The translations under genes and the position numbers were made by a program. Below, in pieces: positions 4,654 through 28,229 of a stretch of DNA of 64,000 nt; position 1 is the first letter of the stretch; every line of letters starts with the position of its first letter. The notes under the pieces are model-generated. The model was not told where the DNA came from. It did no database searches and saw only the letters and a program-made list of their open reading frames with translations. Origin of the DNA: a virus; IMG/VR virus record IMGVR_UViG_3300032296_003714, positions 32,001 through 96,000 of that record, one strand, 5' to 3'.

Positions 4654-4680
4654 ATAAATACTTCAACAAAAGGTATTTAT
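4654..4680. promoter_or_regulatory. Back-to-back divergent TATTTAT promoter-like elements
   Basis: Inverted repeat ATAAATAC-N11-GTATTTAT in the 49-bp gap between divergent genes. Confidence 0.6.
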
Positions 4681-4691
4681 TCTATTAGATT

Positions 4692-6722
4692 ATGTCATAT
4701 CAAAATATAAATCAATATGTGTTTAGAAGGTTATACCTAAAACCACTTAGGGAAATAACTGATATATCGTTAGCCTCAGATGAAAAAGATTATGACCAAG
4801 AGGTTATTTTCTCTCCACTATTGATAGGTGAAGATGATGGTAATAGAATGCCATTAAGGTTTGATTTCAATAGTTCAGGTACAACAGATTGTGTTAATTG
4901 TGGTGATTTTGATAAAGATACAGTAGTTTCTGAAAATTATTGGAACCCTTTAGATTTAGATTTAATAAATTGTGGAACAATAACTGAAATATGTGATGTT
5001 GGATTGACAGGTATCGATAACGGTCTCGTTAAAGCTTTTTCGGGTGAAACAATAGAATTAAATAGTGGATTATATACCTCACGTGCAGATAGATTCTCAA
5101 GATACAAATACGATAGAAGATTTAAAATGCACCCGATTACAGGGTTTACCACGTCATCAGATAGAATATTAGATGATGATTCATACACATATGAAGTAAG
5201 TTTTGATAATGATTCTAATGTTATTGGAGATTATATAAAATTTAATGGGGGATTTTATCAAGGTTTTTATAAGTCATTCGGATATGATTATCAGGTATTA
5301 CCTGAAAGGTATAATTTAGGTTGGACTTCAGAGTTCATGTTGAGATATAGATGGACAGGAGATACTGACACGGGTTTGAATGCAAGATATCCAAATAACA
5401 AGGGAACATTTTTTTATTATGGTGCTAGAGCGGAAAACAAGTTTTACCATTATGCCGATGGCTCTCCATTGAGTGATAGTGGGTATACAAGGGTTACACA
5501 AGGGTTAAATTGTTTGGAAACTTGTGGTTGTTCTTATACTGCAAATACTGCATCAACGTGTAACTATGTTTACCAACAATCAGGTGTAACGTCACAAAAT
5601 TGTAGTTGCGGTCAATGCCCTTGTAACTGTACTACGTTTGCTTTAATGCCGGAAAAAGACCCTAAATGGGATGAGGTTTCTAATGCCATGTCTTTGAGGT
5701 TGAGTGGGGATACAGGTAGTCCTAAACTTTGTGTTAAAACATATAGAATAACTGGTGATTGTGAAACAACCGGAACTTGTGCCACAGGTTTAACATACAC
5801 AACAGGAACAAGTGTAACTGAATGGTGTTCTACAAGGGGTATTTTTGATGACTGTTCTGGTAGTACATATTCAGAAACTGAAAGGTGGGTACAAATAGAT
5901 GCGGTCTTTCAAAGAAACACCTATTTAGATGATTGTGATTTACTATATAAAGGAGGTTTGGGTGAACTTGTAAAGACAGTATATACCGCCAGCTCAGCTA
6001 ATAATAGTGTTAGCTTAATACAGCCACCTATAACCCAAGAAATAGATTATGACCCAGCAACTGTCGAGGTTGTGGAAATGAATGAAAGATGGTTAGAAGA
6101 AAAAAATTATAGATTAGGAACTCTCAAGTTTTATGTTAATGGTAAATTGTTCTTGGTAGTAAATGGGTTTGAAGAAATTATACCAAGACCTTTAAATACT
6201 CTCAGAGAAACTCAAATAGGGGTTGCATATAACATATCATTAGGAGGAGGTACTCAAGGGTTACATGATAATTTAACTGTAACAGATTGTGCAACGACAT
6301 TGACAGGAATGACTTATCAACAAGACCCTGAATGTTTGCCAACTGAGGTTTTGGATGAAACATCTTACTCAGGTCTAACAACAAATATAAAACTTGAAGA
6401 GTACTTTGGGGGTAGCTTTTATGGTGACATTAGTGCTTTCAGGATGTATACAGAGCCGTTAAATGGAGCTCAGATAAGACATAATTTCAAATTATTAAAA
6501 GATAAATATTCATTATTAGACCCGTTCTGTTTGAAATGTGACACTCCAATAATTCCAATACCAACAACCCCCACTCCCACACCGACTCAAACAAGTACAA
6601 CAACCCCCACTCCCACACCGACTCAAACACCAACTCCTAGTTTTGTAGATAATAATTTCTTATTACAAGAAAATTTAGACTATTTATTACAAGAGGACGG
6701 AAATAAAATTATTATAACATAA
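4692..6722 (+). CDS. Cys-rich virion structural protein with LamG/ConA-like elements and a C-terminal Thr/Pro linker
   Basis: WVQIDAVF, LKFYVNGKL, FYGDISAFRMYTEPLNGAQIRHNF (LamG-type C-terminus); C-terminal PTTPTPTPTQT repeats. Confidence 0.55.
   Translation: MSYQNINQYVFRRLYLKPLREITDISLASDEKDYDQEVIFSPLLIGEDDGNRMPLRFDFNSSGTTDCVNCGDFDKDTVVSENYWNPLDLDLINCGTITEICDVGLTGIDNGLVKAFSGETIELNSGLYTSRADRFSRYKYDRRFKMHPITGFTTSSDRILDDDSYTYEVSFDNDSNVIGDYIKFNGGFYQGFYKSFGYDYQVLPERYNLGWTSEFMLRYRWTGDTDTGLNARYPNNKGTFFYYGARAENKFYHYADGSPLSDSGYTRVTQGLNCLETCGCSYTANTASTCNYVYQQSGVTSQNCSCGQCPCNCTTFALMPEKDPKWDEVSNAMSLRLSGDTGSPKLCVKTYRITGDCETTGTCATGLTYTTGTSVTEWCSTRGIFDDCSGSTYSETERWVQIDAVFQRNTYLDDCDLLYKGGLGELVKTVYTASSANNSVSLIQPPITQEIDYDPATVEVVEMNERWLEEKNYRLGTLKFYVNGKLFLVVNGFEEIIPRPLNTLRETQIGVAYNISLGGGTQGLHDNLTVTDCATTLTGMTYQQDPECLPTEVLDETSYSGLTTNIKLEEYFGGSFYGDISAFRMYTEPLNGAQIRHNFKLLKDKYSLLDPFCLKCDTPIIPIPTTPTPTPTQTSTTTPTPTPTQTPTPSFVDNNFLLQENLDYLLQEDGNKIIIT
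6564..6629 (+). repeat. 36-bp-period coding tandem repeat (TTPTPTPTQT)
   Basis: acaacccccactcccacaccgactcaaaca occurs at 6564 and 6600. Confidence 0.85.
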
Positions 6723-6728
6723 AAGAAC

Positions 6729-8675
6729 ATGCCCAATTTACCCATATCTCAACTACCGTTAGCGGTTTCAGGACAACCTGATTCTTTGATGGTAATCGTA
6801 AATCACGATATTGTACCAACAGGTATAACCAATTCAATTTATTTCTCCGCACTGACTCAACAACTTTCAGGAAGTTCAGGAAGTTCAGGAACAAGCGGTA
6901 CGTCTGGTAGTTCAGGGACAGATGGTAGTTCAGGGACAGATGGTAGTTCAGGGACAGATGGAAGTTCAGGAACTAGTGGAATTTCAGGAATAGACGCGGC
7001 GGCGACGTTACGATGGATATTACAAGATACTTCAGGAGGAAATCCTTCATCTGCCACATATTTTACTTCCTGTTGCAATTCTGGTTTATTGAACACAGGG
7101 AGTTTCAAGTTCGCATATGGAAGTACAACCGTTCCATCTGAAGGATTTTGGGACACCATTAACAATGGGACTAATCCTTATTTACAAATTGTTAAGGTTG
7201 GTGACTCAAACGTAATTGGATTGTATGAAATTTCCTCCGTAAGTTATTCCGACCCAGGAAATGGGGGTCAATATAATGTTACTTGTGTTGGTATACCAGC
7301 AATTTATGCTTCAGGTCTTTGGGGTTTAGGCGATACGTATGCTGTATCTTTTATTCTCAATGGTACTTCTGGTAGTTCGGGGTCTAGTGGAACGAGTGGT
7401 TCTTCAGGAAGCTCTGGAACTGATGGTAGTTCTGGTTCTAGTGGAACGAGTGGTTCTTCAGGAAGCTCTGGAACTAATGGTAGTTCTGGTTCTAGCGGAA
7501 CAAGTGGGTCATCAGGAAGTTCTGGTACTGATGGTAGTTCAGGTTCAAGCGGAACGAGCGGTTCTTCGGGGACATCAGGTTTTTCAGGCGACTTATATAG
7601 AACAACTTCATCAACTCTTCTTACAATCCAAACGGGTATCACAGGTACTTTCGTAATTGGTACTAATTTGGGATATAGTGTGGCACAAGATGTGATAATA
7701 GCATATGATTTATCAAATCACATGATTGGTATGGTTGTAAGTTATAATCCTGTTAATGGTGACATGGTTGTTAATGTTCAAACTATTACTGGTTCGGGTT
7801 CATATTCTTCTTGGTTAGTTAATTTGGCAGGCGCTGCAGGAGGTGATGGAAGTTCAGGGACTAGTGGAAGTAGTGGTTCATCGGGTATCTCGGGCTCATC
7901 AGGAACAAGTGGTTCTAGTGGAAGTTCGGGAACCGATGGTAGTTCTGGTTCATCAGGAAGCTCAGGTTCAAGTGGGTCTTCTGGAACTTCAGGCAGTAGT
8001 GGTAGCTCAGGAACATCTGGTAGTTCAGGTTCCAGTGGTACTGATGGTTCTTCTGGTAGTTCTGGCTCGAGTGGTTCTTCAGGTTCATCAGGAAGTAGCG
8101 GTAGTTCAGGAACATCTGGTAGTTCAGGTACAAGTGGTACATCACCAGTATTACCTCTTCCTGTTGTTTTCGGATTATTTGCACAAACAGGAAATAGTGT
8201 AACAGTAAGCGGAACAACAACTGAATCAACTCTTATTGATGGTGGTATTGGAACATTAAGTGTACCTGCAAGTGGTTTCACTGTCGGTGATAGTTTTAGA
8301 GCGGATATGGCTGGCGTATTAAATGTTGGTAATAACCAAACCATAAGAATAAGAGTTAAATCGGGTTCAGTTATTTTGCTTGATAGTGGTGCTCAGGCAA
8401 TAACAAATATCACCGAAGACATTTGGGGTCTTTCGATAAACTTCACTGTAAGACAGGTTGGGCCTGCGGGAGTCGCTTCTATTGTTTCTTTAGGTGCGTT
8501 CCATTATACAAAAACCACTAATGGAACCGTGGAAGGTTTTTCATTCAACACGGTCAATAACACAACATTTGATACTACAGTGAGTAATACATTAGATATT
8601 ACTGTGGAGTGGGGAAGTACAAGTGCGTCAAATAGTATTTATTCTGACATATTTGTATTAAATAAGATTTATTAA
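6729..8675 (+). CDS. Fibre-like virion protein with three Gly-X-X (GSS/GTS/GTD) repeat blocks
   Basis: N-terminal ISQLP motif; Gly at every third residue in blocks at about 6867-6990, 7362-7589 and 7830-8144, separated by beta-rich domains. Confidence 0.65.
   Translation: MPNLPISQLPLAVSGQPDSLMVIVNHDIVPTGITNSIYFSALTQQLSGSSGSSGTSGTSGSSGTDGSSGTDGSSGTDGSSGTSGISGIDAAATLRWILQDTSGGNPSSATYFTSCCNSGLLNTGSFKFAYGSTTVPSEGFWDTINNGTNPYLQIVKVGDSNVIGLYEISSVSYSDPGNGGQYNVTCVGIPAIYASGLWGLGDTYAVSFILNGTSGSSGSSGTSGSSGSSGTDGSSGSSGTSGSSGSSGTNGSSGSSGTSGSSGSSGTDGSSGSSGTSGSSGTSGFSGDLYRTTSSTLLTIQTGITGTFVIGTNLGYSVAQDVIIAYDLSNHMIGMVVSYNPVNGDMVVNVQTITGSGSYSSWLVNLAGAAGGDGSSGTSGSSGSSGISGSSGTSGSSGSSGTDGSSGSSGSSGSSGSSGTSGSSGSSGTSGSSGSSGTDGSSGSSGSSGSSGSSGSSGSSGTSGSSGTSGTSPVLPLPVVFGLFAQTGNSVTVSGTTTESTLIDGGIGTLSVPASGFTVGDSFRADMAGVLNVGNNQTIRIRVKSGSVILLDSGAQAITNITEDIWGLSINFTVRQVGPAGVASIVSLGAFHYTKTTNGTVEGFSFNTVNNTTFDTTVSNTLDITVEWGSTSASNSIYSDIFVLNKIY
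6905..6970 (+). repeat. 18-bp coding tandem repeat (GSSGTD)
   Basis: tggtagttcagggacaga x3 plus a partial copy. Confidence 0.9.
7383..7560 (+). repeat. 54-bp coding tandem repeat (SSGTSGSSGSSGTDGSSG)
   Basis: Near-identical copies at 7383 and 7437; diverged copy at 7491. Confidence 0.85.
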
Positions 8676-8704
8676 AAATAAAACAATATTTATAAATAAA
8701 AAAA

Positions 8705-9676
8705 ATGAACTGCAAGCAATACACACTAACTAACACAACATCTGGTAATTTATATTTTAATTACACAAGATGTGATGATAATATTTTTGAAAGTCAGGTT
8801 TTATTAGAACCAGGAGAAACAAAAAAAATATGGTTAATAACAAATTCATATTCATCTGCATTTGTTACTGGAATCCAAGTTGTCGATAACGGAGCTTTTC
8901 CTGCAACACCGGCAGTAACTCCAACTCCAAGTAGCACACCTAACCCAACTCCTACCATTACACCAACCATAACTCCAACTAATAGTGTAACACCAACCAT
9001 GACTCCAACTAATACTGTAACACCAACATTAACTTCAACACCAACTGTAACACCAACATTAACTTCAACACCAACTGTAACACCAACTCAATCAAGGTAT
9101 CAATTTGCCGCGTATTTCGGCTCAACTCCAGTTCAAGCTTGTGAATTATTTAGTGCTGTTACAATTTATGGTGATTCTGAATTATTTGATAATAATAGCC
9201 AATTCTACAATAATGTCTCAGGACCTGTAACAATAGACATGTCAGGTTATTATAGTTACGATAATCAGGTAACTGAAATTAGTTCTAATGGTACCCAAGT
9301 CGGCTCATTTGATAGCTGTACGGTACTTCCAACAAGAACTCCAACACCAACCGTAACTTCGACCCCGACAGCAACAGTAACACCAACCGTAACATCGACT
9401 CCAACTCCAACCCCAACAAGAAGTATGTGGGTGTATTCTTTAGGTTATGATGCAAATTCAGCATCAACAGCATGTAGTGACTATTCATCAAGTCCAATAA
9501 CTGTTTACGCACCTCTTGAAGGTGGTCCTGGACCTAACATCGGTGAAACATTGTATTCTGATTCAGGATTAACTACTCCTGTTTCTGATGGATATTATTC
9601 AAATGGAATTGCATGGTATCAAGTTACTGGTGGTTCTGGTGAAGTAACATCTTCTGACCCTAACGGTTGTGCATAA
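8705..9676 (+). CDS. Mucin-like Thr/Pro-rich protein with a duplicated Cys-containing domain (probable virion decoration or fibre protein)
   Basis: Two TPTVTPT-type linkers; two related domains (..AC......GYYS....G....C); TATTTAT upstream and a terminator downstream. Confidence 0.6.
9014..9087 (+). repeat. 30-bp coding tandem repeat ([10 protein letters not shown])
   Basis: actgtaacaccaacattaacttcaacacca x2 plus a partial copy. Confidence 0.85.
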
Positions 9677-9698
9677 CAAAAAAAAAATAAAAAAATAT

Positions 9699-9733
9699 AA
9701 ACCCTCTACTTTCGTGGAGGGTTTTTTATTTTT
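9699..9733 (+). terminator. Intrinsic terminator
   Basis: AAACCCTCTAC-TTTC-GTGGAGGGTTT followed by a T-tract. Confidence 0.8.
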
Positions 9734-9751
9734 TAAACAAAATAATATTTC

Positions 9752-11020
9752 ATGAGCAAAATTTTTATTCAAATTGCTTCCTATAGAGACCCTCAGTTGG
9801 TTAACACTATAAAGGATATGATGGCAAATGCAAAAAAACCTGAAAATTTAGTTTTGGGTATTGCGAGACAATTTTCAGAAACAGATGGGTTTGACAACCT
9901 AGATGAATGGAGAGATGATAAAAGATTTAGAATTCTTGATGTCCCTTATCAAGAAGCGAAAGGGGTATGTTGGGCAAGACATTTAGTTCAACAACTTTAT
10001 AAAGGGGAAAAATATACAATGCAAATTGATTCTCACATGAGGTTTGAAAAAAACTGGGATGAGACATTAATTAAAATGATAAAGGGTCTACAAAAGGATG
10101 GGTATAAGAAACCTCTACTTACGGGTTATGTACCCTCCTTTGACCCTGATAATGACCCAGCAGGAAGAGCACAAGATGCTTGGAGAATGACTTTTGATAG
10201 ATTTATTCCTGAGGGTGCAGTTTTCTTTTTACCTGAAACAATACCAGGGTGGAGAGAGATGAAAAAACCCGTAACCGCAAGATTTTATTCGGCCCACTTC
10301 TGTTTTACTTTGGGTGAGTTTTCAACAGAAGTACAGCACAATCCTGAATATTATTTCCATGGTGAAGAAATTTCCATCGCAGCAAGAGCATATACTTGGG
10401 GTTATGATTTATTTCATCCACATATTCCTGTTGTATATCATGAGTATACTCGTAAAGGTAGAACAAAGCAATGGGACGATGATAAGGAATGGGTTAAAAA
10501 GAATCAACATTCACACTTGATGAATAGAAAGTTGTTTGGTATGGATGGTGAAAAACAAGAAGGTCATGATGGTGAATTTGGATTTGGCCCTGTCAGAAGT
10601 CTGAGAGATTATGAAAAATACGCGGGTCTGTTGTTTGAAAGACGCTCAGTACAAAAGTATACGTTGGATAAAAATTACCCACCAAATCCGTACAACTACG
10701 ATTCTGAAGAGGAATGGATGGAAGATTTTACTAATATCTTCAAACATTGTATTGATATCAGCTATTCTCAAGTACCTGAAACAGATTATGATTTTTGGGT
10801 AGTTGCGTTCCACAATGATAAAGATGAAACTATTTTTAGAAAAGATGCGGATAAAAATGAAATTGCGGGTTATATGAGAGACCCTGATAAATATTGTAAA
10901 GTATGGAGAGAGTTTCCAACCAAAGAGTTACCAAAGTATTGGGTTGTTTGGCCACACTCAGAATCTAAAGGATGGTGTGATAGAATTACAGGTCAATTAA
11001 ACCATAGTGTTGTTAGTTAA
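9752..11020 (+). CDS. GT60-type polypeptide alpha-GlcNAc transferase (Skp1-hydroxyproline/Thr GlcNAc-T family)
   Basis: IFIQIASYRDP, EAKGVCWAR, LYKGEKYTMQIDSHMRF (DSH motif), FHGEE, ARAYTWGYD, VVYHEY. Confidence 0.85.
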   Translation: MSKIFIQIASYRDPQLVNTIKDMMANAKKPENLVLGIARQFSETDGFDNLDEWRDDKRFRILDVPYQEAKGVCWARHLVQQLYKGEKYTMQIDSHMRFEKNWDETLIKMIKGLQKDGYKKPLLTGYVPSFDPDNDPAGRAQDAWRMTFDRFIPEGAVFFLPETIPGWREMKKPVTARFYSAHFCFTLGEFSTEVQHNPEYYFHGEEISIAARAYTWGYDLFHPHIPVVYHEYTRKGRTKQWDDDKEWVKKNQHSHLMNRKLFGMDGEKQEGHDGEFGFGPVRSLRDYEKYAGLLFERRSVQKYTLDKNYPPNPYNYDSEEEWMEDFTNIFKHCIDISYSQVPETDYDFWVVAFHNDKDETIFRKDADKNEIAGYMRDPDKYCKVWREFPTKELPKYWVVWPHSESKGWCDRITGQLNHSVVS

Positions 11021-11458
11021 ATGGTATTCATATCACATAGAGGAAATATTGACGGAAAAAATGAAGTAAGAGAAAATTCTCCATATTACGTTATAGAGGC
11101 TCTTGCCATGGGATATGATGTGGAAGTTGATGTTTGGTTTGTTGATGGTGAATTTTGGTTGGGTCATGACGGACCACAATATAAAACTGATTATAAATTT
11201 TTAGTCAATGAAAAATTGTGGTGTCACGCAAAAAATATTGAAGCTTTAATGGAAATGAAAAAATATGTCATTCATTATTTTTGGCACGAAAATGACACCG
11301 TAACTCTAACATCTAAAAATTATGTATGGGCTTATCCGACTAAAGATTTTCCCAACAATACAATTGCCGTCTTACCTGAAATGTTCAATTCTGAAATAAA
11401 TCAATGTAAAGGAGTGTGTTCTGATTTCATAAAAGAATATAAAGAAAAGTATGATTAA
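11021..11458 (+). CDS. Short GDPD/PLC-like phosphodiesterase
   Basis: ISHRGN, ENSP, GYDVEVDVW, LGHD, WCHAKN, GVCSD. Confidence 0.75.
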   Translation: MVFISHRGNIDGKNEVRENSPYYVIEALAMGYDVEVDVWFVDGEFWLGHDGPQYKTDYKFLVNEKLWCHAKNIEALMEMKKYVIHYFWHENDTVTLTSKNYVWAYPTKDFPNNTIAVLPEMFNSEINQCKGVCSDFIKEYKEKYD

Positions 11459-12827
11459 GTTAATTATTTTTGATTTGGATGGAGTTTTAGTAGAGGCAAA
11501 AAAAATTCACTATGATTGTTTGAATCAAGCTCTCGAAGAAGAAGGAGAACAGTATGTTATAGGATGGGACGAGCATTTAAGTATTTATGATGGATTAAAG
11601 ACAAACCAAAAACTAGAATTACTTTCTAACAACAAAGGTCTTCCCGTTAATTCGTATAAAAGAATATGGGAAAAAAAACAAATTCTTACATTAGAATCAC
11701 TGAATAAATTAAATCCAACAGAGCACATAAGAAACTGTATAAGTAGTTTATCTAAAGAAGGATATAAGATTGTTTGTTGTTCAAATAGTATTAGGAAAAC
11801 TGTATTAACGGTTTTAAGTAAACTAGATATAATTCAATATTTTGATTTGATTTTATCAAATGAAGATGTGAAAAACAGCAAACCTCATCCTGAAATATAT
11901 TGGAATGCAATTTCTCACATGTCTTGTTTTCCAGATGAAACACTAATTATTGAAGATTCACCTTATGGTTTGTTAGCCGCAAGTAGGAGTAATTCTATGG
12001 TATATCGTGTTAATTCTCCTAGTGACATAACATATGATAATATAAAGAATCAAATAAATTTTATTACTAAAAACAGTAAGATGGTTAAACATAAGTGGTC
12101 TGACAAAACATTAAATGTACTTGTCCCGATGGCGGGTGCTGGAAGCAGATTTGAAAAAATGGGATATACTTTTCCAAAACCTTTGATTGATGTTATGGGA
12201 AAACCCATGATTCAAGTTGTGGTTGAAAACCTTAATATAGATGCCAATTTCATTTATATTGTACAAAAATCTCATAGAGAAAAATATAATTTAGATACTC
12301 TATTAAATCTTATAACACCAAATTGTAAAATTGTGGAAGTAGATGGATTAACTGAAGGTTCAGCTTGCACAACACTATTAGCCAAAGACTTAATTAATAA
12401 TGATAGTCCATTGATATCAATGAATTCTGACCAATTTATTGAATGGGATTCAAGTGAATTTATGTATAAAATGAACGAGTCCAACTGCGATGCAGGTATT
12501 TTAACATTCAAAGCAACCCACCCTAAATGGTCATTTGTTAAAATAAATGATTTGGGTTATGTAACCGAAGTTGCAGAAAAAAAACCAATTTCTGATATTG
12601 CAACTGTTGGGATTTATTTTTGGAGAAGGGGGTCTGATTATGTAAAATATGCGGAACAAATGATTTTAAAAAATATTAGAGTTAACAATGAATTCTACAT
12701 TTGTCCGGTTTTTAATGAGGCAATTTTAGATAATAAAAAAATAAAAATATTCGATGTTGATAAAATGTGGGGTATCGGTACCCCTGAAGATTTGAATTAT
12801 TTTTTAGAAAATTACATAACTATATAA
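11451..12827 (+). CDS. HAD phosphatase fused to a sugar-phosphate nucleotidyltransferase
   Basis: N-terminal FDLDGVL, CSNS, KPHPEIY, IIEDS; C-terminal VPMAGAGSRF...PKPLIDV, EVAEKK, NNEFYICP, GIGTPEDL. Confidence 0.85.
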   Translation: MIKLIIFDLDGVLVEAKKIHYDCLNQALEEEGEQYVIGWDEHLSIYDGLKTNQKLELLSNNKGLPVNSYKRIWEKKQILTLESLNKLNPTEHIRNCISSLSKEGYKIVCCSNSIRKTVLTVLSKLDIIQYFDLILSNEDVKNSKPHPEIYWNAISHMSCFPDETLIIEDSPYGLLAASRSNSMVYRVNSPSDITYDNIKNQINFITKNSKMVKHKWSDKTLNVLVPMAGAGSRFEKMGYTFPKPLIDVMGKPMIQVVVENLNIDANFIYIVQKSHREKYNLDTLLNLITPNCKIVEVDGLTEGSACTTLLAKDLINNDSPLISMNSDQFIEWDSSEFMYKMNESNCDAGILTFKATHPKWSFVKINDLGYVTEVAEKKPISDIATVGIYFWRRGSDYVKYAEQMILKNIRVNNEFYICPVFNEAILDNKKIKIFDVDKMWGIGTPEDLNYFLENYITI

Positions 12828-12828
12828 A

Positions 12829-13677
12829 ATGAATAATAACTTTTGTTTTCTGGTTTATACTAACGAAACGTATCTCCCAATTGCTAATCTATCCATGTCA
12901 GAATTTGATAGATTTAATCCCAATTTCCCTATAAAAAGATATTTGGTTTCAAATAAAATAGGCGATTTTGAATTTAAAGCACAAAATACAACTTTAATAG
13001 ATTGTGATATTCCGTTTGATGGTTCAGGAAATCACTTTTCTAAAACAATGATGAAAGCCATCTCTAATATTAGTGAGGAGTATATTATATTTTTCTGTGA
13101 TGACTATTTGCCAATAGGCGGAACTAAATGGAATTTATTGTCAGAATTAATTGATATGATAAAAAATGAAGATATAGACTTCATATCTTTTTCATACATG
13201 CCCCAAGCAAAGCAATGGAAAAAATTTCATGCAACGCTTCCTTCAGCACCAGATAAGAATTTATATTATATTCCGGATAACTACATGTATCTGTACAGCG
13301 TCCAGCCATGTATTTGGAAAAAATCTTCATTGTTAGATATCTTATCTCATAATCCAGAAATGTCCTTACATCATTTTGATACAACAAATTTAAAAAATAG
13401 GGAAGGATTTGTTAGAACTATGGATGTTCATACTTCGACATGGAATCCATACCCACAAGGCTCACAAACCTATGGATTTAAATGTTTAAGTACGGATTAT
13501 GGTGGATTTGATGAACAAGAAAATTATGATTGTTTTATATTTCCTTACGTTGAGATAGTAAGACATGGGTTTTTTAATATGTGGAGAGAAACAAATACCA
13601 AAATATTTTTAGAAAAATATATTGTTGATAATAACATTGATGCTGATGAGCGTTTAAAAAGATTTATATACAAATAA
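12829..13677 (+). CDS. Putative GT-A fold glycosyltransferase
   Basis: YIIFFCDDY acidic motif after a beta strand; SVQPCIWKK; glycan-locus context. Confidence 0.5.
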   Translation: MNNNFCFLVYTNETYLPIANLSMSEFDRFNPNFPIKRYLVSNKIGDFEFKAQNTTLIDCDIPFDGSGNHFSKTMMKAISNISEEYIIFFCDDYLPIGGTKWNLLSELIDMIKNEDIDFISFSYMPQAKQWKKFHATLPSAPDKNLYYIPDNYMYLYSVQPCIWKKSSLLDILSHNPEMSLHHFDTTNLKNREGFVRTMDVHTSTWNPYPQGSQTYGFKCLSTDYGGFDEQENYDCFIFPYVEIVRHGFFNMWRETNTKIFLEKYIVDNNIDADERLKRFIYK

Positions 13678-13693
13678 AAATCCACACCATTTT

Positions 13694-14551
13694 ATGAATA
13701 TTGAAGTAATGTTTGAAAAACCACATACTTTGTGGAATGTTGTGTGGGTTTTTGAAAAATTTTTTCACTGGTTTAAAGAAAATTACCCTGAACATAATAT
13801 TACTTTTAAAAATAGTGACCCAGATAAGAGAGGAAATCCATGTAGTCCGTATTCACCTCATGTGATGGTTATAAGAAATTTAGATAATTTAAAATATATC
13901 ATAGTTTCATATTGGGATAGGGCATACGAACTTACATGGCCAGGTTGCGGATGGGATATTGAAAATAGAGTTGAAATAATAACATCTTCAGGTGTCCATT
14001 CCCCAATGGACTTTACACCCTTTTCTTATCTTTGTTATTCAAAGGATTTCGAACAAATTGCGAGTGTTGAAAGAATTCCTTTTGATAAAAAAGAAAAAAA
14101 TTATTTATTTTTTAGAGGGTATCTGTATCATCATAGAAAAATAATGCAAAACCATTTTCCTGAATATTTTACCGAAGAAAGAAAAGTCTCTTTCGATTTA
14201 TTCAAAGAATTTAATGAGAATAAGATTAATCTTAGTATTGATGGTGCAGCTGAAATTTGTCATAGGGATATTGAGATTCTTTCATCTGGTTCTGTTTTAT
14301 TAAGACCTGAGTTAAATCAAATTTTTCATGACCCATTAATTCCTGATTATCATTATATAAGTGTTCCAAAAAGTAATGACCCGGTAACACAATTTAAATT
14401 ATTATTAGAAAAGTACGAAGAAGTTAAAAATAACGATGAATTATTATCCACAATATCAAACAATGGATATGAATGGTATGAAAGAAATGGAACTGTAAAA
14501 TCAAATGTTGATATTTTAAAAAAAATTATAAATTTAGGTAAATTAGAATAA
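13694..14551 (+). CDS. Putative GT-B glycosyltransferase (GT47/GT90-like C-terminal domain)
   Basis: FFRG...INLSIDGAAEICHRDIEILSSG...LIPDYHYISV...ISNNGYEWY. Confidence 0.6.
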   Translation: MNIEVMFEKPHTLWNVVWVFEKFFHWFKENYPEHNITFKNSDPDKRGNPCSPYSPHVMVIRNLDNLKYIIVSYWDRAYELTWPGCGWDIENRVEIITSSGVHSPMDFTPFSYLCYSKDFEQIASVERIPFDKKEKNYLFFRGYLYHHRKIMQNHFPEYFTEERKVSFDLFKEFNENKINLSIDGAAEICHRDIEILSSGSVLLRPELNQIFHDPLIPDYHYISVPKSNDPVTQFKLLLEKYEEVKNNDELLSTISNNGYEWYERNGTVKSNVDILKKIINLGKLE

Positions 14552-14554
14552 ATT

Positions 14555-15946
14555 ATGAATGAAGTTGTTAAATATTGGGATGGGAATCTTATATTACGCC
14601 ACATCGGTAAAGAGTTAAATTGGTTATTTAGTTATCTCGATGATAAAAAAATTGAATCTGTTTCTTTCATTGATATTGGAGGTAATGTTGGAAAATTTTA
14701 TGATGAGGTTTCAAAAAAATATAATATAAAGAAGTGTGTTATTGTTGAACCTTCTAAAGTTTTATATGACTATATGTCTAATAAATTTGAAAACAACGAT
14801 TCTGTAGAAATACACAATTTTGCAATTTCAGATAAAAATGGAAGTTTTCAATTTTACGATAGTGCAAGTATGTTTGTTGACATATTTGAAAAAGAAGAAA
14901 TAAACGATTCAATAAACTTAGGATTGTCTAAGTTGTCTCATGATGTACCTGGTGATACTATGTGTTATAGTATGGATTTCTTTATGAGAGAAATTTGTAA
15001 CATACAACCTAATGAAATAGATTTTATAAAAATTGACACAGAAAATTCTGATTTACAAATTATTAAAAGCATGACGAATTTTTTTGTGGAGAATAAAATT
15101 CGACCTCTAATTCTTTTTGAGAATAACTATCATAACTCTATTAGTGAAACTGAAGCTTTGGCTATTATAAATAATTTTTGTAATTTATGTGGGTATGAAA
15201 AGATTGATTTATCAATACCAGGTGACAATATCCTAATTCCGCTAAAAAAAGAAAAAACTAATAATTTAACTGAAGTTTATAGAATATTACAAAGTTTTAA
15301 AATCGATAAAAAATTTTGGAGATATCAAAACTTAACGGGTGAGGATTATGATATTAGAAGGTCTAAACCGGCACCATACATTAAAACCGCAATTGAAATT
15401 GCTAAAGCGTTAGACTTAAAAAATGTTGTTGAAATTGGTTCTTCAAGATATTCAGTAACTGACCCATGTTTGAAATATTTTGATTTGTCTAATAATGCCT
15501 TTTTGTCTCCACCTTGTTGTTGTGACGGACATGGAGGCTTTTTTTGGTCAAGAGCGGGGTTTGAAGTTTATACTGTAGATATTGACGAAAATTGTAAAAA
15601 TGGGGTCTTGTGGTCTTATGGTAATCTTAATATTCCGGTTCCTGAAAATCTACATGTTGAAATACCTAGAGATGGGATTGAGTTCTTACAATCTTTTGAT
15701 AAAACTATAGACGTTTTATTCTTAGATGGTTGGGATATCGGTACTCCTGAATATGCTGAAAAACATTTAGAGGCGTATTTGGCTGCTGAAAATAAATTAT
15801 CTTCAACCCATTTAGTCTTAATCGATGATACTGATTACATTACCCAAGATGGAGGTAAAGATAAACTATTATCTCCTTATCTAATTGATAAGGGATATAT
15901 TCCATTATTTAATGGAAGGCAAACATTATACATGAAATATGAGTAA
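14555..15946 (+). CDS. Double methyltransferase: FkbM-family domain fused to a second class I SAM-MTase domain
   Basis: FIDIGGNVG, VEP, NFAISD, FIKIDTEN (FkbM); then VVEIGS, YTVDID, DVLFLDG, LIDD. Confidence 0.8.
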   Translation: MNEVVKYWDGNLILRHIGKELNWLFSYLDDKKIESVSFIDIGGNVGKFYDEVSKKYNIKKCVIVEPSKVLYDYMSNKFENNDSVEIHNFAISDKNGSFQFYDSASMFVDIFEKEEINDSINLGLSKLSHDVPGDTMCYSMDFFMREICNIQPNEIDFIKIDTENSDLQIIKSMTNFFVENKIRPLILFENNYHNSISETEALAIINNFCNLCGYEKIDLSIPGDNILIPLKKEKTNNLTEVYRILQSFKIDKKFWRYQNLTGEDYDIRRSKPAPYIKTAIEIAKALDLKNVVEIGSSRYSVTDPCLKYFDLSNNAFLSPPCCCDGHGGFFWSRAGFEVYTVDIDENCKNGVLWSYGNLNIPVPENLHVEIPRDGIEFLQSFDKTIDVLFLDGWDIGTPEYAEKHLEAYLAAENKLSSTHLVLIDDTDYITQDGGKDKLLSPYLIDKGYIPLFNGRQTLYMKYE

Positions 15947-16691
15947 AGTAGTTATAAGTCTTACGACAATACCAAACAGATTAAATCCTGATAGACCAGG
16001 TTATGGATTAAAGCCTGCACTAGATAGATTAACAACATTATCTTATGGTGATTATGAAGTTCATTTGAATATACCATTTGTGAATAATAAATCTGGTGAA
16101 TATTATACAATACCTAATTGGTTACAGGAATATAATTCGGACAAATTAAAAATTTTTAGAACTGAAGATTATGGTTCAATAACAAAACTGATTCCTACTG
16201 TTGATAGGTTATCTGACCCTAATGATATAATAATAACAGTTGATGATGACTTGAATTATATGGATGGTTTCATTGAATATCATTTAGAAAAAAGGAAACA
16301 ATACCCTGACGCTGCAATTGGTTTTGCGGGTATAGGCTCAATTGGGGGGACCTGCCATTTTTGTACCACAGTAAAAGATGATGTTAGAGTTAAAATTTTA
16401 GAAGGATATAAAACTGTATCATATAAAAAAGGTTTTTTTGGTTCGGATTTTAAAGATTTTGCAATAGGAAATTGGAATGATGATATGATTATATCTGCAT
16501 ACTTAGGTAAAAATTACATCCAAAAAATGGTTGTTGCTTACGATAAAGACACTGATTATTCTCCAAGAGTTGAGTCATTTCCTGTCATTGGACATCTGCC
16601 AAATGAAAGAGGTGGCTGTTGGTGGTTTAGAAATGAGTCTGTACCTGACAATCATCAGATATACTATAAATTAGGATTTTTAGAAAGATAA
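15939..16691 (+). CDS. GT-A fold glycosyltransferase (GT2-like)
   Basis: VISLTTIPNR, DYGSITKLIP, IIITVDDD, NDDMIISAY. Confidence 0.7.
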   Translation: MSKVVISLTTIPNRLNPDRPGYGLKPALDRLTTLSYGDYEVHLNIPFVNNKSGEYYTIPNWLQEYNSDKLKIFRTEDYGSITKLIPTVDRLSDPNDIIITVDDDLNYMDGFIEYHLEKRKQYPDAAIGFAGIGSIGGTCHFCTTVKDDVRVKILEGYKTVSYKKGFFGSDFKDFAIGNWNDDMIISAYLGKNYIQKMVVAYDKDTDYSPRVESFPVIGHLPNERGGCWWFRNESVPDNHQIYYKLGFLER

Positions 16692-16692
16692 T

Positions 16693-18363
16693 ATGGAAAA
16701 AGTTACTTTAGTCACAGGTTTATGGAATATTGGTAGGGATAACCTATCAGAGGGATGGTCTAGGTCATTCCAACATTATTTAGATAGATTTGATAGATTA
16801 TTGGATGTTGACGCCAATATGATAATATTTGGAGACGAGGAGTTAGAATCATTTGTCTTCAAAAAAAGAACTAATGAGAATACACAATTCATACTTAGAC
16901 CTACAAGCTGGTTTGTTCACAATGAATTCTATGATAAGATTCAAGAAATTAGGACTAAAGAATCTTGGTATAATCAAGTAGGTTGGCTCAAGGATTCAAC
17001 ACAGGCTAAGTTAGGAATGTATAACCCCTTGGTTATGTCTAAAATGTTTTTATTACATGATGCAAAAATTTTAGATAGGTTTAATTCTGATTATATGTTT
17101 TGGATTGATGCTGGTCTTGCAAACACAGTTCATCCAGGATATTTTACACACGATAAAGTTTTAGATAAATTACCAAAATATATTTCTAAATTTTCATTTG
17201 TTTGTTTTCCATATGAGACTTCTGTTGAAATACATGGTTTTGAATATTCAAAATTAAAATCTATAGCAAATTCCGATGTTAAAAAAGTTGCGAGAGGCGG
17301 ATTCTTCGGAGGTCCAAAAAGTACGATATCTGAGATAAATTCAATTTATTATTCATTGATGAAATCAACATTGTATGATGGATACATGGGTACTGAAGAG
17401 TCACTATTCAGTATTATGTGTTATAAACATGCTGATGTTGTGAATTATTTTGAAATAGATGGTAATGGATTAATGGGTAAGTTTTTTGAGGATTTGAAAA
17501 ACGATAAGTTGGTCGTAAAATCAGAGTCTTCTATTAATAATTCACACGTATTAGATTTATCAAAAACATCCTTGTACGTTATAGGTTTTAATAGTCCAAA
17601 ACAATTTAAGACACTTATTGAGTCTATGTTATCTTATGATAAAAACTTTATAGAAAAACCAAAAAAATATTTATTAGATAATTCTACTGATTTGTCAACT
17701 ACTGAGGAATACTCGGTAATTTGTAAAGAGTTTGGTTTTGAACATATTAAGAAAGATAATTTAGGTATTTGTGGTGGTAGACAATTTATTGCAGAACATT
17801 TTGAAGAAAGTGATTCTGACTTTATGTTTTTCTTTGAAGATGATATGTTTTTCTATCCTAAGGATGGTGTATGTAGAAATGGATTCAATAGATATGTTCC
17901 TGACCTGTATCAAAAATCATTAGAGATTGTGAGAAAAGAAGGTTTTGATTTTTTAAAATTAAATTATAGTGAATTTTTTGGCGATAATGGCACACAGTGG
18001 ACATGGTATAATGTACCACAACATTTGAGAGAAGAGTTTTGGCCCGAAAAACCCAAACTACCTGAAAGCGGATTAGACCCAAATGCACCTAAAGTTAAGT
18101 ACGGAAAAATAATTTCACACAAAGGAGTTCCATATTCTAATGGTGAAATATATTATTGTAACTGGCCACAAATTGTTTCTAAATTAGGTAATAAAAAAAT
18201 GTTTTTAGATACAACATGGGCACATCCGTTTGAACAAACTTGGATGAGTCATATGTATCAACTGACAAAAAAAGGTGAATTAAATCCAGGAATTTTATTA
18301 CTTACACCAACAGAACACAATAGATTTGAACATTACGGTCCAGGGTTGCGTAAAGAATCATAA
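16693..18363 (+). CDS. HtrL/WlaTC-like glycosyltransferase fused to a second GT-A domain
   Basis: TLVTGLWNIGR, YNPLVMSK, FWIDAG, GGFFGG, GTEE; second domain LLDNS, NLGICGGRQ, FFFEDD. Confidence 0.7.
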   Translation: MEKVTLVTGLWNIGRDNLSEGWSRSFQHYLDRFDRLLDVDANMIIFGDEELESFVFKKRTNENTQFILRPTSWFVHNEFYDKIQEIRTKESWYNQVGWLKDSTQAKLGMYNPLVMSKMFLLHDAKILDRFNSDYMFWIDAGLANTVHPGYFTHDKVLDKLPKYISKFSFVCFPYETSVEIHGFEYSKLKSIANSDVKKVARGGFFGGPKSTISEINSIYYSLMKSTLYDGYMGTEESLFSIMCYKHADVVNYFEIDGNGLMGKFFEDLKNDKLVVKSESSINNSHVLDLSKTSLYVIGFNSPKQFKTLIESMLSYDKNFIEKPKKYLLDNSTDLSTTEEYSVICKEFGFEHIKKDNLGICGGRQFIAEHFEESDSDFMFFFEDDMFFYPKDGVCRNGFNRYVPDLYQKSLEIVRKEGFDFLKLNYSEFFGDNGTQWTWYNVPQHLREEFWPEKPKLPESGLDPNAPKVKYGKIISHKGVPYSNGEIYYCNWPQIVSKLGNKKMFLDTTWAHPFEQTWMSHMYQLTKKGELNPGILLLTPTEHNRFEHYGPGLRKES

Positions 18364-18379
18364 CAATATATTTATTGTT

Positions 18380-18757
18380 ATGGAATTTTTTATAAAAAAG
18401 AATGCATCCCTACCGGTTCTAAAAATGCAAGTAGTTAAAGACGGAAGGTCAGGGTATCAACAATTAATGGAAGATTTAGAAGTTTCTTCAATATACTTCT
18501 CTATGATTGATACTGCAAATGGTATACCTAAAATAATCGATGCCCCATGTGGTATTGTTCCCATAGATTTACCAGCGGGTTCTCCACCCGAATATTATAT
18601 TTATTTCCAATTTAACGCGAGAGATACAAACACGACTGGAAGATATAAAGGTGAGTTTTTAATTAAAAACGATGAAGGCAATCTAATTCTACCTTTAAGG
18701 GAGGAAGTGTATATAAATGTTCAAGATAGTTTTTCCGCAATAGACCCTTGTTGTTAA
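18380..18757 (+). CDS. BppU-like baseplate/fibre adaptor domain protein
   Basis: ATG at 18380 (MEFFIKKNASLPVL...YFQFNARDTNTTGRYKGEF...LILP...INV) fits the BppU N-terminal pattern; TATTTAT ends 4 nt before this ATG. Confidence 0.55.
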   Translation: MEFFIKKNASLPVLKMQVVKDGRSGYQQLMEDLEVSSIYFSMIDTANGIPKIIDAPCGIVPIDLPAGSPPEYYIYFQFNARDTNTTGRYKGEFLIKNDEGNLILPLREEVYINVQDSFSAIDPCC

Positions 18758-18781
18758 TTTAATTTCATTTATATTTAAAAA

Positions 18782-19444
18782 ATGATAGAAAATTTTTTAG
18801 GTGTAAACATATCTTATCCATATAATATTTTTACAGAATCAGAACTTTTTTTCTTATATGGTGTAATTTCATCGATTAATCCACAAAATATAGTCGAATT
18901 GGGAGGAGGGTCTCAAGGAATTTGTTCTAGCGTTTTCACAAAAGCACAGAAAAATAATCCTAAAGCTAAGCTTTTTTCCGTAGATATTTTAGAAATGAAA
19001 AAAAAATCCAATAATCATTTTTTACTTCAAAAAGATATAAATGATGTAACACCTGATGATATACATAATGAAAAAATAGATGTTGTTTTTTTTGATTCTC
19101 ATGGAGTAATTCCGCAATTAAACTTTTATAATAAAATGGTTAAATATAATTTAATTGATGACGACACACTTCTTATTTTACACGACACAAATTTATTTTA
19201 TGAACCAATAACAAGTATGTGTATCAATTCGAATGGTCACTTTGGTATGTTCACTGAAGAAGGTTATGCTCACCAATGGGTTGAAAGAAATCTTGTTAAT
19301 TATTTTAAATTAAAAGGTTATGATGTTTTTAGTTTATCTACAAAACCAGAAAATCATAATGAAAACCATCCATTACTTTTTGGTATTTCCGTTTGTAAAA
19401 AATTCAAAGTTTTAAATCCAATTTCTTTGGTTTATCCCGAATAA
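18782..19444 (+). CDS. Class I SAM-dependent methyltransferase
   Basis: PQNIVELGGG, LFSVDI, IDVVFFDSH, LILHDT. Confidence 0.75.
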   Translation: MIENFLGVNISYPYNIFTESELFFLYGVISSINPQNIVELGGGSQGICSSVFTKAQKNNPKAKLFSVDILEMKKKSNNHFLLQKDINDVTPDDIHNEKIDVVFFDSHGVIPQLNFYNKMVKYNLIDDDTLLILHDTNLFYEPITSMCINSNGHFGMFTEEGYAHQWVERNLVNYFKLKGYDVFSLSTKPENHNENHPLLFGISVCKKFKVLNPISLVYPE

Positions 19445-19458
19445 TTTTTATATTTATC

Positions 19459-19503
19459 AGAGAAGGTAAATTTCACATTTTGTGAAAGCTAATAGACCAC
19501 TCT
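19459..19503 (+). promoter_or_regulatory. Candidate structured 5' leader RNA of the DNA polymerase gene
   Basis: Inner stem TTTCACA/TGTGAAA; outer pairings GGT/ACC and AGAG/CTCT; lies between TATTTAT (19451) and the ATG (19515). Confidence 0.4.
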
Positions 19504-19514
19504 AAAAATATATT

Positions 19515-28107: not shown

Positions 28108-28229
28108 AAAAGATAAAAAAGGCAGAATATATTCATACTAAATACAAATAGATTATAAAAAGTAAAGTTTTTTCATTCGTTATCTAATATTTATGAATAA
28201 AAATAAATCTTTTTTAGAAACCAATAATA

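Follow-up and report, generated by a model that had tools for sequence, protein, structure and literature searches.

In Gram-positive bacteria, serine-rich-repeat adhesins receive a first O-linked HexNAc in the cytoplasm on their long Ser/Thr-rich repeats. The initiator is the GT-B (GT4) enzyme pair GtfA/GtfB, the elongating glycosyltransferases (GTs) are strain-variable and include a bifunctional two-domain GT, and export is carried out by accessory Sec. In giant viruses, the capsid glycans of chloroviruses are N-linked, and Mimivirus has fibril glycans and collagen GTs (R699) with hydroxylysine linkage; we know of no GT60 initiator described there. Glycosylation of virion proteins by viruses is established in giant viruses and some mycobacteriophages, and is deemed rare in phages.

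The families GT27 and GT60 both O-glycosylate Ser/Thr of polypeptides, with DxH (instead of DxD) as their hallmark metal-binding motif (PMC7185993), and their characterised enzymes favour Thr/Pro-rich mucin-like sequences (PMC7185993, PMC9472816). The GT60 glycans of T. cruzi are extended with Galf (PMC9472816). O-glycosylation of capsid and tail proteins in mycobacteriophage virions was described by Freeman et al. (2023), as summarised in a review (PMC11652166). Virions of the jumbo phage XacN1 gave at least two Schiff-positive bands, without protein assignment, and its authors proposed in 2018 that two GTs, a GT60 homolog included, make virion glycoproteins (PMC5852040). A literature search on GT60 and phage returned nothing relevant.

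The window analysed here is a stretch of 64,000 nucleotides from an uncultured jumbo phage. It carries a protist- and animal-style candidate initiator of GT60/GT27 type, found in a very abundant clade of freshwater jumbo phages (578 viral contigs) and accompanied by dedicated mucin-like candidate acceptors and an O-antigen-like variable cassette. The enzymes known in phage virion glycosylation differ from those at this locus. With the serine-rich-repeat system it would share the cytoplasmic start, variable elongating GTs and a two-domain GT, and a search of the ORFs in the locus and the left-hand island showed neither GtfA/GtfB nor SecA2/SecY2. With giant viruses it has in common big sets of GTs, sugar-nucleotide enzymes and methyltransferases independent of the host secretory pathway, but their hosts are eukaryotic and their linkages different. 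As in the mycobacteriophages of the review's summary, the GTs would decorate the phage's own structural proteins, with glycans that shield the virion; there, however, other GT families and other acceptors (capsid and tail subunits) are reported, with one to a few GTs in a system shown by experiment, whereas more than 15 glyco-genes would take part here.

Fibre-like genes and the GT60 enzyme

The ORF positions of a preliminary description stood, as did its three consecutive fibre-type genes with Ser/Thr acceptor tracts followed by a GT60-type enzyme:

4692–6722, + strand: Cys-rich fibre- or decoration-like protein of 676 aa, with a ConA/Laminin_G_3-like lead and a C-terminal TP tract
6729–8675, + strand: collagen-like tail-fibre-type protein (PF01391 at 2.4e-30; PHROG tail-fibre families)
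8705–9676, + strand: "beads on a string" protein of 323 aa, Cys-containing small domains linked by TP tracts, candidate main acceptor
9699–9724, + strand: hairpin resembling an intrinsic terminator (stem of 11 bp followed by a T-run) at the boundary of fibre genes and GT60
9752–11020, + strand: GT60 (PF11397) polypeptide-type GT-A glycosyltransferase, candidate initiating enzyme (Pfam, PHROG, motif and fold)

The three fibre-like genes are co-oriented, each with TP tracts or Ser/Thr-type collagen repeats, and the collagen-like gene is flanked by both TP-tract genes directly upstream of GT60. In the whole 107-kb record, only the products of 4692–6722 and 8705–9676 are true TP-tract proteins. 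The tract of the former covers 32 residues (nt 6552–6647; 14 T, 10 P), and those of the latter 63 (nt 8900–9088) and 35 residues (nt 9326–9430). The 676-aa protein, in which neither signal peptide nor TM segment was detected, was kept in 28/28 relatives with full flanks; tblastn gave no match for it in 50,697 phage records, and neither single-sequence nor profile searches matched it significantly to PDB sequences. The collagen-like protein contains three arrays (nt 6870–6995, 7362–7595 and 7830–8144) with 75 Gly-X-Y triplets, whose X and Y are nearly all S, T, D or N, Pro and Lys being absent; its C-terminal globular domain is conserved. In the relative L022 this protein is reduced to 211 aa with the N- and C-terminal parts retained and the repeats gone, and the homolog of the 676-aa protein has 1309 aa, with TP-linker residues in the hundreds.

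With the strong terminator in between, fibre genes and GT60 may or may not be co-expressed. The fibre-like genes are surrounded by replication and GT genes, and the main structural block lies elsewhere (28–64 kb), which counts against glycosylation of the phage's own fibres. The motif TATTTAT shows no overall excess (37 copies against 41 expected); because it stands ahead of PolB, RNR and structural genes alike, it was not used as evidence of late expression.

The product of 9752–11020 matched PF11397 with an E-value of 4.7e-66 (224 bits, cut-off 21) and phrog_24687 with 1e-161. Its DxH motif is D93-S94-H95, which did not vary in comparisons of 6 and of 22 homologs from phages and bacteria, and the gene was found in 80/80 related loci with 83–90% identity. 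PF11397 was the only Pfam match, GT27 catalytic and ricin-type lectin profiles being absent, and PDB sequences yielded no significant match in single-sequence or profile searches. The fold of the AF2 model (pLDDT 92.6) is closest to GT27: the best 29 VIA entries were all ppGalNAc-Ts (Z 19.5–22.5; GalNAc-T2 at Z 22.5, rmsd 3.6 over 276 aligned residues), and the next GT-As reached about 17. The enzyme would be GT27-like in its working, but by sequence it is not a member of GT27. A conserved, beta-rich C-terminal domain covers about residues 325–415.

With the protist GT60 alpha-GlcNAc-transferases (TcOGNT1/2 of T. cruzi, Gnt1 of Dictyostelium and Toxoplasma) the phage enzyme shares PF11397, DxH, a GT-A fold nearest GT27 and candidate acceptors that are mucin-like and rich in Thr and Pro. 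T. cruzi adds Gal and Galf to its GlcNAc-O-Thr, and the phage has a gene for a UDP-galactopyranose mutase (Glf). Unlike the protist enzymes, the phage one is predicted to be soluble and cytoplasmic without a Golgi anchor, has the extra beta-rich domain, always has a tandem GT-A enzyme as its partner, and is encoded in a phage genome. The GT27 enzymes, which act on dense Thr/Pro tracts, also combine a catalytic with a C-terminal accessory domain and DxH, but they are Golgi-lumenal, and fold searches did not place the C-terminal domain of the phage enzyme, for which Pfam reports no ricin-type lectin.

The tandem GT-A partner and the variable cassette

Downstream of GT60, and in an island to the left, further glyco-genes were located:

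871–2085, − strand: glycosyltransferase of 404 aa, rightmost gene of the left-hand glyco-gene island (phrog_7162)
11021–11458, + strand: cassette ORF of 145 aa (phrog_34507)
11451–12827, + strand: fusion of HAD (beta-phosphoglucomutase-family) and sugar-1-phosphate nucleotidylyltransferase (Pfam, PHROG)
12829–13677, + strand: cassette ORF of 282 aa, with 43 homologs and no Pfam match
13694–14551, + strand: cassette ORF of 285 aa, language-model lead to an RXYLT1_C/GT90/Glyco_trans_1_2-type GT
14555–15946, + strand: protein of 463 aa with an N-terminal FkbM methyltransferase domain and a C-terminal domain without family match (Pfam; phrog_24975)
15939–16691, + strand: cassette ORF of 250 aa, with more than 350 homologs and no family
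16693–18363, + strand: tandem GT-A enzyme of 556 aa, conserved GT60 partner (Pfam, AF2 folds)
18326–18757, + strand: conserved ORF of 143 aa (77/80 relatives)
18782–19444, + strand: SAM-dependent O-methyltransferase of 220 aa, Methyltransf_24-like (homolog annotations)

The 556-aa enzyme was present in 80/80 phage loci and about 30 bacterial loci. Residues 3–255 matched PF09612 (HtrL_YibB, 5e-18), and comparisons with PDB sequences, single-sequence and profile, gave nothing significant. In its AF2 model (pLDDT 88.4), residues 1–268 match GT6 enzymes (Z 13.6), and residues 286–550 match B4GALNT1, POMGnT1 and GnT-I (Z 15–16). The N-terminal domain would be HtrL_YibB/GT6-like and of the retaining type, and the C-terminal domain, with invariant E382-D383-D384, a putative inverting GT-A. 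As a predicted double GT-A structure it resembles LH3, COLGALT1, LARGE1, K4CP and Mimivirus R699, the last being a likeness to giant viruses among its best matches. Since a retaining-type and an inverting-type domain stand in the same chain, the enzyme may transfer two sugars in sequence, or alternate between them in a polymerising manner.

The six genes between GT60 and this enzyme form a swap slot, with 36 ORF families and at least 22 architectures in relatives; its hypervariable contents are GTs and sugar O-methyltransferases. The set in the window is almost private, being absent from nearly all relatives. The HAD-nucleotidyltransferase fusion, which matched both domains as described before, is missing from all 80 relatives and is probably an NDP-sugar donor module. 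Profile comparison ties the 282-aa ORF weakly to the Fringe-like GT of the island (hhalign 43%). The product of 13694–14551, which had a single match in the cassettes of relatives (L038), is possibly a GT, a lead that comes from the language model alone. Many metagenomic phage contigs carry homologs of the 250-aa ORF, in one case as a fusion with methyltransferase domains, and hhalign found no link to the relatives' annotated GT and methyltransferase families. Downstream, 18782–19444 occupies a second variable slot ahead of the PolB gene; in most relatives this slot is empty and about 95 nt long. Among homologs of the 220-aa product, one contains PF13578 and one bears the name YrrM in its source; BLASTP of that product against the Methyltransf_24 protein of the island was not significant.

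The left-hand island is larger, extends to the left of the window, and holds GT2, GT14, GT31-like and GT47-like enzymes, Glf and methyltransferases. No TM-like segment was found in about 40 island ORFs, whose products are predicted to be soluble. Megablast of the locus against 50,697 phage records gave no match.

The preliminary description had counted four further GT genes with five domains. The two GT-A domains of 16693–18363 held up and the count did not, since 12829–13677 has a weak link, 15939–16691 is familyless and 13694–14551 has a language-model lead. Two of three claimed methyltransferase domains were recovered, the FkbM-type one in 14555–15946 and that in 18782–19444, and the third was not found. 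No match was obtained for the supposed GDPD-like protein (11021–11458), for which PDB sequences also gave nothing significant, or for the BppU-like adaptor (18326–18757), and none supports a phospho-substituent on the glycan. To speak of one locus is misleading, as a terminator precedes GT60, six genes form a variable cassette and at least nine more GT-type genes lie outside 4692–19444.

Counterparts in other phages and in bacteria

Co-occurrence of GT60 with TP proteins, proposed earlier as a check, was examined across phages. The ORF directly upstream of GT60 had 74–299 TP-tract residues in 49/54 relatives, and (PT)n-coding tracts were found in 4/4 complete GT60-positive jumbo phages versus 0/5 GT60-negative large myoviruses, a comparison that covers only about two independent phage lineages. 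The reversed-pattern control gave 0 in every genome.

The GT60 homolog of XacN1 is 46% identical. XacN1-type phages of Xanthomonas and Stenotrophomonas resemble the locus in GT60 (45–49%) and the double-GT-A enzyme (42%), with the order kept, and in the TP-linker proteins ORF350 and ORF325. They differ in a cassette of carbamoyltransferase and two other ORFs, in having neither Glf nor a P4H-like oxygenase, and in TP proteins that lie away from GT60. ORF350 homologs in GT60-negative phages were sought as a natural experiment, which failed; the N-domain occurs only in the four GT60-positive phages. In the homolog from Xoo-sp13 the linker is missing. Given the 2018 proposal of the XacN1 authors (PMC5852040), the idea of phage virion glycosylation is not wholly undescribed, and the system first presented as undescribed was partly anticipated.

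In bacterial chromosomes, GT60 and the double-GT-A gene were paired in about 30/58 loci from several phyla. TP-tract ORFs within 1 kb of bacterial GT60 numbered 10, against 1.7 expected (about 6-fold, Poisson 1.3e-5), though such adjacency was seen in only about 10/58 loci. The bacterial TP proteins have RR signal-like N-termini, the motifs being spotted by eye, and NCBIfam gave no Tat-signal match; one of them (L089) has a T9SS sorting domain above cut-off. One Gemmatimonadaceae GT60 neighbour bears a PqqD peptide-recognition domain, and in Saprospiraceae MAGs GT60 is 67–69% identical. Tentatively, and at rather less than even odds, GT60 plus tandem GT-A could be an unrecognised prokaryotic "mucin-type" O-glycosylation module, common to several bacterial phyla and a widespread jumbo-phage clade. 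Bacteria would then glycosylate TP-repeat surface proteins, secreted or T9SS-sorted, in the cytoplasm and perhaps before Tat export, and the phage slot would yield strain-specific glycans of virion fibres, possibly mimicking or competing with host surface mucin.

Proposed pathway and its alternatives

We propose, with a probability of about 0.6, that the phage glycosylates its own fibre or decoration proteins in the cytoplasm, before or during assembly; the acceptors and sugars, the sequence of reactions, the place in the virion and the function are inferred. GT60 would use a UDP-sugar to attach a first HexNAc, alpha-GlcNAc by family precedent, to Thr, and possibly to Ser or hydroxyproline, in the TP tracts of 8705–9676 and 4692–6722, and perhaps in the Ser/Thr Gly-X-Y repeats of 6729–8675. 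The 556-aa enzyme would then lengthen the chain, by the next two sugars or by a disaccharide repeat. Branches that differ between strains, and O-methyl caps, would come from the variable slot (NDP-sugar module, putative GTs, FkbM and Methyltransf_24 methyltransferases), and the island would contribute its GT2, GT14, GT31-like and GT47-like enzymes, its Glf and its methyltransferases. The outcome would be a mucin-like, strain-variable glycan coat over flexible fibre linkers, with possible roles in stiffening, protease resistance, adhesion or shielding.

The core idea, a GT60 initiator with adjacent Thr/Pro or Ser/Thr-collagen fibres, elongating GTs and methyl caps, stood up to every computational test made here, while the preliminary interpretation as a whole is partly supported. 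The core idea gains from the ppGalNAc-T-like fold, the bacterial pair beside TP proteins, the (PT)n tracts in 4/4 versus 0/5 genomes and the Schiff-positive bands of XacN1; synteny across 80 relatives is inherited and so is not independent evidence. Counting against it, TP linkers are common flexible spacers that do not require glycosylation, and soluble GTs can also act on lipid-linked intermediates.

The glycans might instead go to acceptors other than, or besides, the adjacent TP and collagen-like proteins, such as proteins of the capsid, the sheath, other parts of the virion or the host, TP tracts being plain linkers. The terminator ahead of GT60, the unassigned bands of XacN1, the wide occurrence of TP linkers in proteins without known glycosylation, and the capsid and tail acceptors characterised in mycobacteriophages, as the review's summary has it (PMC11652166), are in keeping with this. 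We hold it unlikely, as TP-tract ORFs are enriched beside GT60 in unrelated bacterial lineages, (PT)n tracts follow GT60 in large phages, and characterised GT60/GT27 enzymes favour Thr/Pro-rich mucin-like sequences (PMC7185993, PMC9472816). That the island remodels a host glycoconjugate (LPS, capsule or a TP-rich surface glycoprotein) for superinfection exclusion or receptor masking, or makes a free polysaccharide, appears quite improbable. About 40 island proteins have no membrane segment, the ORFs of locus and left-hand island include no flippase, polymerase, phosphoglycosyl transferase or Gtr-type protein, the initiator is of polypeptide-directed type, and signal-less TP proteins of the phage itself adjoin GT60 in 49/54 relatives. 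This is set against the HtrL/YibB, GT25, GT2 and GT9 families typical of LPS loci, cassettes as hypervariable as O-antigen or capsule loci, and bacteria (Saprospiraceae MAGs included) that hold the enzyme pair beside secreted TP proteins, so the phage copy could act on a host protein. Of the membrane proteins for Und-P-linked surface polysaccharides (phosphoglycosyl transferase, flippase, polymerase, ABC transporter), none occurred among locus and left-island ORFs; host genes could supply them.

Replication genes (PolB, exonuclease, SNF2 helicase) surround the locus, and multi-GT pathways for DNA glycans exist in phages (bioRxiv 10.1101/2023.12.21.572611; PMC13326640), so hypermodification of phage DNA for protection from restriction was also considered. 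It is very improbable: all characterised GT60 enzymes work on polypeptides, and the phage GT-As that act on DNA look like JGT and TarP rather than GT27/GT60. DNA-modification genes were checked in complete relatives, the window's own record being 35% complete. Two complete relatives have no C5 DNA methyltransferase (PF00145) and no Tet/JBP dioxygenase (PF12851), the latter a weak absence as 0/14 control genomes were positive, and the relatives have a single, canonical ThyA homolog, which matches PF00303 with 287 bits and thymidylate synthases of solved structure with 1e-70.

For glycosylation of the phage's own fibres, cultured entry points are XacN1, Xoo-sp13, CM1, RAS14 and the bacterium Jiulongibacter sediminis. 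If true, it would give a prokaryotic and viral counterpart to mucin-type O-glycosylation, an explanation for many TP-linker proteins of phages and Bacteroidota, and a portable set of soluble enzymes with which peptides could be densely O-glycosylated. Phage particles would then carry strain-specific glycan coats, which would bear on adsorption, stability and antibody recognition.

Fibre-like proteins and glycosyltransferases of the locus

Complete relatives of the source genome are about 317-321 kb, and sheath, tape-measure-like, baseplate, PolB, DnaB and RNR genes were found in the window, therefore the source is a jumbo myovirus. The window spans bases 32001-96000 of the 107-kb IMG/VR virus record, whose completeness is about 35% (CheckV); GC is about 32%. 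The plus-strand ORF coordinates agreed with those listed in the preliminary description.

Genes of the locus with features assigned (window coordinates, strand, product)
4692-6722, +, 676-aa protein, Cys-rich, whose C-terminal end is a 32-residue TP tract
6729-8675, +, collagen-type protein (PF01391, 2.4e-30; PHROG tail-fibre families)
8705-9676, +, TP protein, small Cys-containing domains linked by 63- and 35-residue TP tracts
11451-12827, +, HAD and NTP-transferase fusion, beta-PGM-family HAD domain with sugar-1-phosphate nucleotidylyltransferase
12829-13677, +, candidate GT, weak link to Fringe-like GT
13694-14551, +, candidate GT, language-model lead to RXYLT1_C/GT90-type viral proteins
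14555-15946, +, FkbM protein, FkbM methyltransferase domain at the N-terminus
15939-16691, +, ORF with more than 350 homologs and no family match
18782-19444, +, putative O-methyltransferase, via homologs (one with PF13578, one source-named YrrM)

Ser/Thr-dense tracts had been described in three consecutive fibre-like genes and were recovered in all of them, as TP tracts in 4692-6722 and 8705-9676 and as Gly-X-Y in 6729-8675. The collagen-type protein has 75 Gly-X-Y triplets, in which X and Y are nearly all S, T, D or N, with Pro and Lys absent. When the whole 107-kb record was scanned, true TP tracts were confined to the other two proteins. Another Ser/Thr-rich protein, of 713 aa with 27% S+T, is encoded at genome 103340-105481, about 7.3 kb past the right end of the window; the GXY-run scan of the record did not pick it up, and it is a further possible acceptor.

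The GT60-type enzyme of the preliminary description (9752-11020) is a clear member of PF11397/GT60 (4.7e-66). Its model was confident (pLDDT 92.6, pTM 0.87), and in a fold search the predicted catalytic domain matched 29 polypeptide GalNAc-transferase entries at Z 19.5-22.5 (GalNAc-T2, rmsd 3.6 across 276 residues), with the remaining GT-A enzymes trailing at about Z 17. A D-S-H motif was unvarying among phage and bacterial GT60 homologs; DxH is a signature common to GT27 and GT60, the two families O-glycosylating polypeptide Ser/Thr, and GT60 is restricted to prokaryotes and protists (PMC7185993). A further domain, beta-rich and about 90-120 residues long, sits C-terminal to the catalytic domain; it is kept in phage and "paired" bacterial forms and missing from a Burkholderia-type subfamily.

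The 556-aa protein encoded by 16693-18363 contains two GT-A domains (model pLDDT 88.4). Residues 1-268 matched PF09612 (HtrL_YibB) and resembled retaining GT6 enzymes at Z 13.6, while residues 286-550 were like the inverting protein-glycan-extending enzymes B4GALNT1, POMGnT1 and GnT-I (Z 15-16), and E-D-D was unvarying in this C-domain. At full length the best matches were two-domain GTs: LH3, COLGALT1, LARGE1, K4 chondroitin polymerase, heparosan synthase and Mimivirus R699.

As a whole, the earlier observation was largely real, and its core interpretation is the best supported, while several annotated details were wrong. The HAD-nucleotidyltransferase fusion held as a beta-PGM-family HAD with a sugar-1-phosphate nucleotidylyltransferase. 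Among four further GT genes proposed, 16693-18363 was demonstrated, and 12829-13677, 13694-14551 and 15939-16691 were not. Two of three methyltransferase domains were recovered (FkbM, and the O-methyltransferase from homologs); a third was not found. Nothing supported a GDPD-like protein for 11021-11458, a BppU-like adaptor for 18326-18757 or a phospho-substituent on the glycan.

Conserved and variable genes among phage relatives

GT60 relatives were encoded on 578 viral contigs. Over the best 80 of these (83-90% identity), the 676-aa protein, TP protein, GT60, double GT-A, 143-aa ORF (18326-18757) and PolB were conserved, whereas each of the six genes that separate GT60 from the double GT-A, like the methyltransferase preceding PolB, was present in 0 or 1 of the 80. 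Among the 54 relatives with sufficient sequence, 49 had 74-299 TP-tract residues in the ORF immediately 5' of GT60. The 676-aa protein has a 1309-aa homolog in one relative (L022) with linker residues in the hundreds.

Most relatives have 1.6 kb between GT60 and the double GT-A, and others have 2-8 kb; over 81 phages the ORFs of this interval form 36 families, arranged in at least 22 architectures. The annotated families are GT25, GT10-like, PLOD-GT, RXYLT1_C, GT1, GT2, FkbM and a CmcI-type rhamnosyl O-methyltransferase. With such variable GT and methyltransferase families the interval is a slot in which glycan-tailoring genes are swapped, and in this it is comparable to an O-antigen locus. 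The stretch from the 143-aa ORF to PolB (18758-19514) is another variable slot: most relatives have about 95 nt and no gene there, a few have 640-1430 nt, and in the window the O-methyltransferase gene fills it.

The system extends beyond 4692-19444, the range first described, into a glyco-gene island left of the window.

Glyco-genes on the left side
L085:7369-19565 (left-of-window region; genome 19369-31565), -, glyco-gene island with GT2, GT1-like, PhoH and several ORFs without family
Island, -, UDP-galactopyranose mutase (2.9e-74)
Island, -, two Methyltransf_24 genes
Island, -, GT47/RXYLT1-like gene
Island, -, Fringe/GT31-like gene
Island, -, Core-2/I-branching GT14 gene (7.7e-36)
Island, -, GT2_5 gene
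Window 871-2085, GT gene

The TP gene and GT60 are separated by a terminator-like hairpin with an 11-bp stem. Sense-strand TATTTAT was observed 4-62 nt 5' of 17 of the 48 window gene starts (e.g. 4674-4680, 8687-8693, 28188-28194), including the three fibre genes, sheath, baseplate and many structural genes, also PolB and RNR, and before none of the ten GT-operon genes from 9752 to 19444. Window intergenic DNA has 16 sense versus 4 antisense copies. This distribution supports no conclusion on expression timing.

The cultured phages XacN1, Xoo-sp13, CM1 and RAS14 encode GT60 at 45-49% and the double GT-A at 42% identity. In XacN1, ORF350 has about 200 TP/TPS linker residues flanking a ConA-like domain. 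In a scan of XacN1, Xoo-sp13, CM1, a complete clade relative and five GT60-negative large myoviruses, (PT)n-coding tracts were present at several sites in the three cultured phages, present also in the clade relative, and found in 0 of 5 GT60-negative genomes; the reversed-pattern control was empty in every genome. Further (PT)n loci of XacN1 (212685-212839, 124967-132288, 274816-276005) include the 3313-aa ORF325 beside baseplate genes, and the GT cluster. XacN1 virions gave at least two Schiff-positive bands, protein identities not given, and the authors proposed the XacN1 GTs as their makers (PMC5852040).

Bacterial counterparts

GT60 relatives were found in 63 bacterial loci, in about 30 of which a double GT-A gene directly adjoins GT60; these span Gemmatimonadota, Saprospiraceae, Lewinellaceae, Cytophagales, Verrucomicrobia and Acidobacteriota. 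TP-tract ORFs within 1 kb of bacterial GT60 numbered 10 versus 1.7 expected (P ~1e-5). RR motifs were present in five GT60-adjacent TP proteins, and, by eye only, Tat export may be proposed for them. A T9SS sorting domain scored above cut-off in one TP protein (L089) and slightly below in another.

Locus of a Jiulongibacter sediminis isolate
L107:2949-13151, UDP-glucose dehydrogenase, UXS-like, second GT60 paralog, 262-aa protein, GT60, carbamoyltransferase, FkbM and HtrL fusion

In the 262-aa protein, an RR signal-like N-terminus is combined with about 125 TP residues; the carbamoyltransferase is shared with XacN1. In a chromosomal module of this kind (L107, also L126, L089, L094 and L106), UDP-GlcA and UXS-like genes flank an RR-signal-like TP-repeat protein, one or two GT60, a carbamoyltransferase and an FkbM/HtrL double GT. 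To the extent searched, it would be an undescribed bacterial glycoprotein system.

In a Gemmatimonadaceae locus, the ORF directly 5' of GT60 (L106:7230-7955) has a PqqD (RiPP recognition element-like) peptide-recognition domain and a short S/T/P tract, so that the product of this locus may be a glycosylated peptide. On a 3-Mb Saprospiraceae MAG contig (L111:316-5853), an 1845-aa TP-containing protein with a crAss-like muzzle-protein N-terminus lies 5' of GT60; either a phage origin of this stretch or a chimeric contig might account for it. The phage locus belongs to a larger system that is modular and has counterparts in bacteria.

Proposed acceptor of the predicted glycans

That the phage O-glycosylates its own TP and collagen-like fibre proteins is the best-supported reading, unproven, with a probability of roughly 0.6. 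The locus GTs might instead hypermodify phage DNA with glycans, as is already known in phages, but complete relatives were without TET/JBP and C5-MT genes (the TET/JBP search was also empty in all control genomes), their thymidylate synthase is canonical only, and DNA-directed GT-As are similar to JGT and TarP, not GT27. Remodelling of the host surface by island enzymes is weakened because the island lacks any membrane component (no TM-like segments in about 40 proteins) and the phage carries its own signal-less TP proteins. The acceptor could also be another virion protein.

The thymidylate synthase homolog of a complete relative (L149:174-1268; 364 aa), canonical in sequence, has an insertion relative to 264-aa bacterial enzymes, and its PDB matches break into 2-3 stretches.

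Hydroxyproline rather than Thr is a possible attachment residue. PF13640-type oxygenases are encoded in the clade, whereas they are absent from XacN1 and Xoo-sp13.

PF13640 (P4H-like 2OG-Fe(II) oxygenase) matches
G000:C1:4054-4302, this record (n=1)
G001:C1:28772-29065, 152970-153233 and 162023-162214, complete relatives (n=3)

If these oxygenases hydroxylate proline, the TP tracts could bear Hyp-linked glycans.
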